DNA of 64,000 nucleotides, taken from Escherichia coli. Lineage in GTDB: Bacteria; Pseudomonadota; Gammaproteobacteria; Enterobacterales; Enterobacteriaceae. The notes beneath the pieces are model-generated. The model was given only the letters and a program-made list of their open reading frames with translations, had not been told where the DNA came from and did no database searches. Every line of letters begins with the position of its first letter. Within the stretch, counting starts at the first letter, position 1. The position numbers and the translations under genes are program-made. Below, piece by piece: positions 11,425 to 42,391 of the stretch. The stretch lies in assembly GCF_048403405.1 (NCBI RefSeq), contig NZ_CP183129.1. One strand, 5' to 3'.

Positions 11425-11625
11425 GGTCTTGCCTGATGCGACGCTGGCGCGTCTTATCAGTCCTACGCAGGAGTAGAACCGTAGGTCGAATAAGGCGTTC
11501 ACGCCGCATCCGACAGCCGTTGCCTGATGCGACGCTGGCGCGTCTTATCAGGCCTGCGCAGGGGTAGAACCGTAGGTCGAATAAGGCGTTCACGCCGCAT
11601 CCGACACGCATTGCCCGATGCCGCA
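11425..11625. repeat. tandemly duplicated REP/BIME unit (~90 bp, two copies)
   Basis: GCCTGATGCGACGCTGGCGCGTCTTATCAG...CGTAGGTCGAATAAGGCGTTCACGCCGCATCCGACA occurs twice with a few substitutions. Confidence 0.85.
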
Positions 11626-18024: not shown

Positions 18025-18798
18025 ATGTCCGAGAATAAATTAAACGTTATCGATTTGCACAAACGCTACGGCGAACACGAAGTGCTGAAAGGGGTTTCAC
18101 TGCAAGCGAATGCCGGAGATGTAATTAGCATCATCGGATCGTCGGGATCGGGGAAAAGTACCTTTCTGCGCTGCATTAACTTCCTCGAAAAACCGAGCGA
18201 AGGATCGATCGTGGTCAATGGCCAGACGATCAATCTGGTGCGCGACAAAGATGGTCAACTCAAAGTCGCCGATAAAAATCAGCTGCGCTTACTGCGCACA
18301 CGCCTGACGATGGTATTCCAGCACTTCAATCTCTGGAGCCATATGACGGTGCTGGAAAACGTCATGGAAGCGCCGATTCAGGTGTTGGGCCTGAGCAAGC
18401 AGGAAGCGCGCGAGCGGGCGGTGAAGTATCTGGCAAAAGTCGGGATAGACGAGCGTGCGCAGGGGAAATATCCGGTGCATCTTTCCGGCGGTCAGCAACA
18501 GCGTGTTTCCATCGCAAGGGCGCTGGCAATGGAACCGGAAGTTTTACTATTTGATGAACCTACCTCGGCGCTCGATCCTGAACTGGTAGGCGAAGTGTTA
18601 CGTATTATGCAGCAACTGGCAGAAGAGGGGAAAACCATGGTGGTAGTGACTCACGAAATGGGCTTTGCTCGCCATGTTTCTACTCACGTCATTTTCCTCC
18701 ATCAGGGGAAAATAGAAGAAGAGGGCGCGCCAGAACAGTTATTCGGTAACCCGCAAAGTCCTCGTCTGCAACAGTTCCTTAAAGGTTCGCTGAAATAA
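18025..18798 (+). CDS. hisP: histidine ABC transporter ATP-binding protein
   Basis: 257 aa with Walker [10 protein letters not shown] and LSGGQQQR signature. Confidence 0.95.
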
Positions 18799-18993
18799 TT
18801 TCCTCTCCGGTGGCTAACGCTGCCGGAGTATTTCATGGGGAATTTGCGAGTCCGCTTCCGCTGAAATGTAAAAGTTGCAGTCCGCTAAAAATAGTTCTGA
18901 ATTCGCTGTCCAAAGATAAAAACTGCCTGCTGCATTGGGTGTAAATCGTGGTTATTGTCGCGTCATCTTAAATTTGAGGGGTGACGGAACGCC

Positions 18994-19884
18994 ATGACAA
19001 TATCGACAACTTCCACGCCGCATGATGCGGTATTTAAATCTTTTTTACGCCATCCAGACACCGCGCGGGATTTTATTGATATTCATCTTCCCGCGCCGCT
19101 GCGCAAACTGTGTGATTTAACAACACTTAAACTGGAACCAAACAGTTTTATTGATGAAGACCTGCGGCAATATTATTCCGACCTCTTGTGGTCTGTGAAA
19201 ACGCAGGAGGGAGCGGGTTATATTTATGTGGTGATAGAGCACCAAAGTAAGCCAGAGGAATTAATGGCTTTTCGCATGATGCGCTATTCCATTGCGGCGA
19301 TGCAAAACCATCTTGATGCGGGCTATAAAGAGCTTCCATTAGTGATCCCGATGCTGTTTTATCATGGTTGCAGAAGCCCTTATCCATATTCACTCTGCTG
19401 GCTTGATGAATTTGCCGAGCCTGCGATTGCCCGCCAAATTTATTCATCGGCTTTTCCGCTGGTGGATATTACCGTGGTGCCGGATGACGAGATTATGCAA
19501 CATCGCAAAATGGCGCTGTTGGAGTTAATTCAGAAACATATTCGTCAGCGCGATCTGTTGGGATTAGTCGACCAAATTGTTTCGCTGCTAGTTACAGGGA
19601 ACACTAATGACAGACAGCTAAAAGCCCTGTTTAATTACGTATTACAAACGGGGGATGCCCAGCGTTTCCGTGCATTTATTGGTGAGATAGCGGAACGCGC
19701 ACCACAAGAAAAGGAGAAACTGATGACTATTGCTGACAGATTACGTGAAGAAGGCGCAATGCAGGGCAAACACGAAGAAGCCCTGCGTATTGCTCAGGAG
19801 ATGCTGGAAAAAGGATTTGACTACGAAGTCATCCTGACGCTGACCCGACTTTCGCCAGACGATCTTATCGCGCAAAACCACTAA
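18994..19884 (+). CDS. rpnB: Rpn-family recombination-promoting nuclease (YhgA-like, PD-(D/E)xK)
   Basis: 296 aa matching E. coli YfcI/RpnB between hisP and yfcH. Confidence 0.88.
19723..19884 (+). CDS. candidate in-frame internal product of rpnB (C-terminal 53 aa, RpnS-like)
   Basis: In-frame ATG at 19723 preceded by AAGGAG 6 nt upstream inside rpnB. Published work on Rpn proteins describes internally encoded small C-terminal proteins. Confidence 0.4.
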
Positions 19885-19931
19885 TCCTGTAACACCGGGA
19901 ATTAACTGGCGGATGTTTGCAGTAGACCACA

Positions 19932-20825
19932 TCAGCGAACAACATCCGCCAGCGCCTCTTCTAAATCGTACCAGCGAAACGCAAAACCCGCTTCTTCCAA
20001 CCGTTTAGGCAAGGCGCGTTGACCGCCTAATACCAGTACTGAAGATTCGCCCATTAACAGTCGAATAGCGGTCGCGGGGACGCGCAAAATGGCCGGGCGA
20101 TGCAGCGCATGACCGAGCGCATGGGCAAATTGTTCATTGCGTACCGGGTAGGGCGAAACCATATTAAATGGCCCGCGCAGCTCGTTATCGAGCAGCCAGA
20201 GAATGCCGTTGACCATATCATCAATATGAATCCAGGCCAGATACTGCCGACCGGAACCAATCGGCCCGCCCAGGCCAAGACGAAACGGCGGCAGCATTTT
20301 ACCGAGAATACCGCCATCCGGTGCCAGCACTACGCCGGTACGCAGCAGGCACACTCGCGTTTTGTCACTTTGTGCCCGACAGGCAATTTCTTCCCAGCGG
20401 GCGCAGAGTTTATGAGTAAATTCGTTATGCGGCGGTTCCTCTTCGGTAACCACCACTTCACCTAAGTCGCCATAATAGCCCGTTGCCGAGCCGGAAATGA
20501 GTACCGACGGCGGCGTGTCGCTGGCATTAATCAAATCGACCAGTTTTTGCGTGATATTCCAGCGGCTTTGGCAGAGACGCTCTTTTTGCTCGTGAGTCCA
20601 GCGTTTATCAGCAATCGGTTCTCCGGCCAGGTTGATTACCGCATCAACGCCGTTGAGGTTACTTTGATCGGCAAGCCCTTGCCATAGTGTCACCCGAGGG
20701 CCGAGAACGGAACTGGCTTTCTGCGGGTTACGCGTCACTACCGTGATTTGATGGCCCAGATCCAGCAAACGCGGAATCAAATGGCGACCAATTAATCCCG
20801 TCCCTCCGGTGATCACTATCTTCAT
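19932..20825 (-). CDS. yfcH: epimerase-family (NAD-dependent SDR-like) protein
   Basis: 297 aa, N-terminal GGTGLIG Rossmann motif. Confidence 0.9.
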
Positions 20826-42339: not shown

Positions 42340-42391
42340 CCGAATTTCGATTAACGCTCAGTCTCTGACTGAGAAAACTGGAAGCATGCTA

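Follow-up and report, generated by a model that had tools for sequence, protein, structure and literature searches.

The rpnB gene (yfcI) carried by the 64,000-nucleotide stretch of Escherichia coli DNA analysed here (the window) is very probably a gene within a gene (we put the probability of this reading at about 0.93), encoding a toxin and its antitoxin in one reading frame: the long product, RpnB-L, would be the toxin, and the short product, RpnB-S, made from the ATG at 19723, would be the antitoxin that keeps the nuclease inactive. The nested gene, rpnB-S (19723-19884, + strand), lies in the frame of rpnB and encodes a 53-aa protein that is the C-terminal domain of RpnB-L, of the HTH_Rpn_C type (PF27070; structure 7TH0). 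An intragenic antitoxin of this kind is already known; it was established between 2019 and 2023, including for RpnB itself.

The rpnB open reading frame (18994-19884, + strand, 296 aa) is supported by the list of open reading frames and by matches to Pfam, NCBIfam and RefSeq, and its neighbours are hisP (18025-18798, + strand) and yfcH (19932-20825, - strand). The Pfam family PF04754 (Transposase_31, YhgA-like) matches RpnB amino acids 8-209 (E = 1.8e-91), the NCBIfam model of the Rpn family (TIGR01784) scores 189 bits (cutoff 52), and identical DNA in E. coli TUM14771 is annotated as rpnB in RefSeq. All the residues described as catalytic or important in RpnA (D11, D63, E82, Q84, R94, D165; PMC5350276) are present in the RpnB of the window, as is the PDDEI motif, and these functional residues are invariant or nearly so among 32 homologues of RpnB. 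Judged by its sequence, RpnB-L is most likely a toxic PD-(D/E)XK DNA endonuclease. Downstream, between the convergent rpnB and yfcH, there is an inverted repeat of 10 bp at 19908-19950 (GGCGGATGTT ... AACATCCGCC; loop of 23 nt), which overlaps the yfcH stop codon and may be a terminator-like element common to both genes.

The preliminary description had placed an AAGGAG 6 nt before an ATG in the frame of rpnB and had given the product as 53 aa long, and both statements are exact. The Shine-Dalgarno (SD) sequence of rpnB-S, AAGGAG (19711-19716, + strand), is formed by the codons of K240 and E241 and is conserved in nine homologous sequences; it is followed by the spacer AAACTG and by the ATG at 19723-19725, which is Met244 in the frame of rpnB ((19723-18994)/3 = 243), and the stop codon at 19882-19884 gives 53 residues from this start. 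The predicted anti-SD duplex of AAGGAG has an energy of -8.7 kcal/mol, and the 61 nt centred on 19723 are the most weakly folded of all the 61-nt windows in rpnB (dG = -1.9 kcal/mol; mean across the gene -12.3 kcal/mol, sd 4.0). Both codons of the SD are minor ones in the 64 kb (AAG, 23%; GAG, 30%; expected joint frequency 0.069), AAA and GAA being the preferred codons for Lys and Glu. The strongest predicted anti-SD duplex of the gene (-10.8 kcal/mol) belongs to another sequence, AGGAGG at 19205-19210 (coding for Q-E-G). It was considered as a start site and rejected, since the nearest ATG, at 15 nt, is out of frame and an in-frame GTG comes no nearer than 17 nt; apparently it resembles an SD only incidentally.

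The preliminary description had also proposed that RpnB contains an internal small C-terminal antitoxin, and this turned out to have been published already for the K-12 protein (PMC10400941). In rpnA-E, Ribo-RET has been reported to give peaks at internal starts that lie in the reading frame (Meydan 2019, bioRxiv 10.1101/520783), and in K-12 rpnB ribosome profiling with Onc112 and with retapamulin gave peaks inside the gene (Zhong et al., PNAS 2023, PMC10400941). In the latter work SPA-tagged RpnB-S was detected by immunoblot; RpnB whose internal ribosome-binding site (RBS) and start had been mutated was more toxic and inhibited growth more strongly; RpnB-dependent SOS induction (dinD-lacZ) was suppressed by RpnB-S, not by RpnA-S; and a stop codon at 'D29' of RpnB-S abolished this suppression (PMC10400941). 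When the K-12 allele is counted from Met244 there is an Asp at position 29 (...EMLD29RG), and the published 'D29' fits only with this start. The RpnA residues K240, E241 and M244, at which RBS and start mutations abolish RpnA-S (PMC10400941), occupy positions homologous to the SD and start of RpnB. Since the D29 numbering and the homology to RpnA agree, the published RpnB-S start is the codon at 19723.

The combination of an SD and an internal ATG is, by itself, not beyond chance in 64 kb; it is a lead, not evidence. In the window, 78 ORFs have a length of 150 aa or more; their internal in-frame ATGs were scanned for an SD hexamer (AAGGAG, AGGAGG or GGAGGT) within a 12-nt segment whose end lies 3 nt before the ATG (spacing 4-10 nt). 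Exactly one internal ATG with a strong SD was found, the rpnB site. When codons were shuffled within the same ORFs, such sites numbered 1.08 on average (P = 0.65); chance would place at least one of them in rpnB itself with a probability of 0.027. What raises the rpnB-S site above chance is its conservation at the DNA level, the rarity of the AAG-GAG pair and the local lack of mRNA structure.

Conservation was analysed in a protein comparison of 32 full-length homologues with identities as low as 66% (E. coli RpnA, Salmonella, Citrobacter, Kluyvera) and in a codon alignment of nine sequences, comprising the rpnB of the window and eight diverged homologues with 66-71% protein identity to it. 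K240, E241, M244 and T245 were invariant in 32/32 homologues, and the linker around them was variable. At the nucleotide level, the AAGGAG-6nt-ATG arrangement was kept in 9/9 aligned sequences, rpnA included, and the three longest invariant runs of rpnB among these nine were TGTTTAATTA (19628-19637), AAGGAG (19711-19716) and ATGAC (19723-19727). In 126 columns of the alignment the amino acid is invariant and has synonymous codons, and only 10 of these columns use the same codon in all nine sequences; six of the ten fall within amino acids 204-243, a segment with 13 such columns out of 126 (hypergeometric P = 6e-5). Within the species, the 141 nt from 19600 to 19740 have at least 95% identity in all 4755 E. 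coli genomes carrying rpnB.

The longest invariant run in rpnB, the 10-nt block TGTTTAATTA, contains a -10-like TTTAAT (19630-19635), separated by a 17-nt spacer from a -35-like ATGACA (19607-19612) that is kept in 8/9 homologues. This ATGACA-17-TTTAAT / TGTTTAATTA element (19607-19637, + strand), picked out by its conservation, is a likely candidate for the internal promoter of a short rpnB-S transcript, at a position that we infer from the sequence; the predicted transcription start would be near 19642, with a leader of about 80 nt. A strict sigma-70 scan of 18800-20000 returned no promoter near the internal start; this candidate was missed because its -10 has T, not A, at position 2. Start sites inside all rpn genes have been described by dRNA-seq (PMC10400941).

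That AAGGAG represents coincidental Lys-Glu codons before a Met, with no separate protein or with functionless traces of one, is extremely improbable. Codon shuffles do produce about one such site per 64 kb, and the AGGAGG at 19205-19210 is an SD-like sequence of the same gene with no usable start; however, the AAG-GAG pair is kept in nine diverged homologues despite the preference for AAA and GAA, the spacing and the ATG are invariant in the same sequences, the start lies in the least structured mRNA region of rpnB, and a small functional protein has been detected in K-12 (PMC10400941). A small C-terminal species could instead arise mainly by proteolysis of full-length RpnB, the SD-like element serving as a translational pause site only, and we regard this as hardly credible. 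Ribosome pausing at internal SD-like sequences has been proposed, and the boundary does fall within a linker that joins the conserved nuclease domain to the variable tail. Against proteolysis, initiation-inhibitor profiling gives peaks at the internal starts of all rpn genes (PMC10400941, 10.1101/520783), the RBS and start mutations that abolish RpnA-S were also the approach used to abolish RpnB-S, and the RpnS proteins are more abundant than the RpnL proteins and have their own transcription start site (PMC10400941).

A further alternative accepts that RpnB-S is translated but gives it, as a main or an added role, that of an HTH-like DNA-binding autoregulator or of a sensor of a phage factor. 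It draws on the Pfam name HTH_Rpn_C, on the HHpred similarity to HTH motifs and on the fact that the authors of the K-12 work left the mechanism of RpnL release open (PMC10400941), as well as on the strongest allelic divergence (see below), which is located in the turn and helix 2, away from helix 1, the dimer interface of RpnA-S (PMC10400941). Nevertheless, we consider it quite unlikely: RpnB-S specifically blocks the SOS induction and growth inhibition caused by RpnB-L, and RpnA-S, which has a crystal structure, binds RpnA-L directly, forming an L2S2 complex and inhibiting DNA cleavage in vitro (PMC10400941). An HTH role would, moreover, supplement the antitoxin role and not replace it.

The fold of RpnB-S was analysed in an AlphaFold2 model built on an alignment of 22 S-domains (pLDDT 81), which has three helices, at residues 3-29, 34-41 and 45-52. 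The top and only confident match of the model in the Foldseek search of the PDB was 7TH0, the structure of RpnA-S (probability 1.00, TM-score 0.69/0.78, rmsd 2.4 A, 45% identity); the 7TH0 chain (49 aa) aligns from its residue 1 to RpnB 244-294, and the phmmer comparison with 7th0_A gave E = 7.4e-5. As modelled, RpnB-S folds as a three-helix bundle like that of RpnA-S / HTH_Rpn_C (PF27070). PF27070 was not reported by the local Pfam search of the window protein but is present in the precomputed annotation of its close homologues. A kinship with pentatricopeptide-repeat proteins (window 19756-19845, residues 12-41) was considered and discarded: phmmer whole-sequence E-values against designer pentatricopeptide-repeat proteins went down to 2e-30 through the summing of weak matches between a single helical hairpin and each of some ten repeats, and no single stretch was significant (per-domain i-Evalues 29-260).

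With RpnB-L as toxin and RpnB-S as its nested antitoxin, the following mechanism is proposed. An unrestrained RpnB-L nuclease would damage DNA, induce SOS and inhibit growth. RpnB-S would be translated in excess over RpnB-L, from 19723 via the AAGGAG at 19711-19716, its mRNA being probably a short transcript from the internal promoter about 80 nt upstream, near TGTTTAATTA. The long first helix of RpnB-S would then bind the same domain of RpnB-L to give an inactive L2S2-type complex, the binding mode and stoichiometry proposed for RpnB being carried over from RpnA by homology. Since toxin and antitoxin share the coding DNA of this domain, a change in it would alter both at once, allowing rapid, self-matched diversification by four-residue repeats and substituted patches.

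RpnB-L/RpnB-S of K-12 is the same gene in another strain, sharing with the window the hisP-yfcH locus and the 296-aa and 53-aa products; the SD, spacer and start codon of RpnB-S are identical and the DNA upstream is essentially identical, whereas the S domain differs at 10/53 residues. The RpnA-L/RpnA-S pair has in common with RpnB the SD on K240-E241, the start at M244 and the PD-(D/E)XK N-terminal domain, and the full-length proteins are 66% identical, with matching three-helix S folds; RpnA is, however, a paralogue at another locus, next to feoC, and RpnA-S does not cross-neutralise RpnB-L. The stand-alone RpnS genes (ypaA/rpnE-Ss, rpnC-Ss; DUF4351) encode the same small C-terminal-domain protein acting on an Rpn nuclease, but each is a gene of its own that follows rpnE or rpnC, whereas RpnB-S is encoded only inside rpnB. 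Cas10d/Cas11d and the ArcB iTIS likewise yield two proteins per ORF via an internal RBS and start near the 3' end; their short products cooperate with or act independently of the long form, whereas RpnB-S antagonises RpnB-L. Type II toxin-antitoxin systems likewise have an excess of a protein antitoxin that binds a protein toxin, and many of these antitoxins are helical or HTH-like; the type II antitoxin is a separate gene, whereas RpnB-S is read from within the toxin gene and is identical to the C-terminal domain of its toxin, hence their obligatory co-evolution.

No separate rpnB-S coding sequence is present in the RefSeq records with an intact rpnB, MG1655 included, and because RefSeq annotates the long CDS only, RpnB-S is invisible to annotation-based analyses. 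The 53-aa query did return apparently free-standing RpnB-S genes, in two E. coli assemblies (L013 2501-2662 and L014 2501-2662), where the ORF is called as a 'hypothetical protein'; hisP, rpnB and yfcH are all fragmented there, and these calls are probably sequencing or assembly frameshifts, not true separate genes. As to anti-phage defence, no PADLOC v2.0.0 model matches rpnB, and there is no defence island around it, hisP, yfcH and folX being housekeeping genes; the plasmid-encoded RpnP2 protects against T-even phages, and phage protection has been demonstrated for RpnP2 only (PMC10400941).

Elsewhere in the window, Rfam matched a C4 antisense RNA (39-126, - strand, 78.5 bits) and an isrK Hfq-binding RNA (162-236, - strand, 63.1 bits); both exceed the Rfam gathering score and adjoin each other, which suggests a prophage or satellite-phage remnant at the window start. 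Rfam also matched naRNA4, a REP-derived nucleoid-associated RNA (11484-11554, + strand, 75.1 bits), and the nuoG RNA motif (42342-42384, + strand, 50.3 bits).

Compared over 1 kb, the window DNA has 96.3% identity to K-12 and matches strain TUM14771 completely (100%), and the regulatory DNA of rpnB-S is essentially that of K-12. The N-terminal 729 nt of rpnB differ from K-12 at 20 nt (17 synonymous and 3 non-synonymous codons), and the S region differs at 18/159 nt (4 synonymous and 10 non-synonymous codons). Nine of the ten residues that distinguish the window RpnB-S (53 residues) from the tested K-12 protein are in residues 29-40, which read DRGLDRELVMMV in K-12 and differ in the window. This hyper-divergent patch (19809-19840, + strand), in which 16 of 32 nt (50%) differ from K-12, extends from the end of helix 1 across the turn and helix 2. 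It holds 16 of the 18 nucleotide differences of the S region, in a gene that is otherwise roughly 97% identical to that of K-12. We infer from K-12 that the RpnB-S allele of the window has antitoxin activity.

Window-type S regions (at least 95% identity) were found in about 890 of the 4755 genomes (~19%), including O157:H7, O55:H7 and strain 042, and K-12-type S regions (80-90% identity to the window) in 3786 (~80%). The RpnB-S of O157:H7 and O55:H7 differs from that of the window at 2 residues. Of the two types, that of K-12 lies nearer to the family consensus, so the window type looks derived. Gene conversion from a paralogue was rejected as the source of the patch, both megablast (77 nt) and blastn (162 nt) matching one place per genome, always rpnB; no donor of the patch was found in E. 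coli (5426 genomes searched).

Another variable site of the S region is a hotspot of four-aa repeats and indels in helix 1 (E253-G258, EGAMQG; 19750-19767, + strand), where other alleles are 12 nt longer: E. coli 961 and BEC1 have REEGRNDGLILGK in place of the REEGAMQGK of the window (+4 aa after REEG). The S-domains of the homologues are 53, 57, 61, 65, 69, 73 or 77 aa long, that is, in steps of 4, with (GxQx)n-type repeats. This four-residue repeat variation of the RpnB S-domain agrees with the published description, and in RpnC the number of four-residue repeats sets specificity (PMC10400941). Beside these repeats, the patch at 19809-19840 might form a second axis of RpnB diversification, arising by micro-recombination or persisting as an old balanced polymorphism, with pairs that would fail to cross-neutralise or would be set off by different phage triggers; we offer this tentatively and think it on balance unlikely.

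The rpnB case illustrates that a genuine gene within a gene can be recovered from sequence alone by a reader without tools, and the location of its candidate promoter follows from the nucleotide-level conservation pattern in rpnB. The RpnB-S allele of the window, with its divergent helix-2 patch, is a natural experiment on toxin-antitoxin specificity in the Rpn family.
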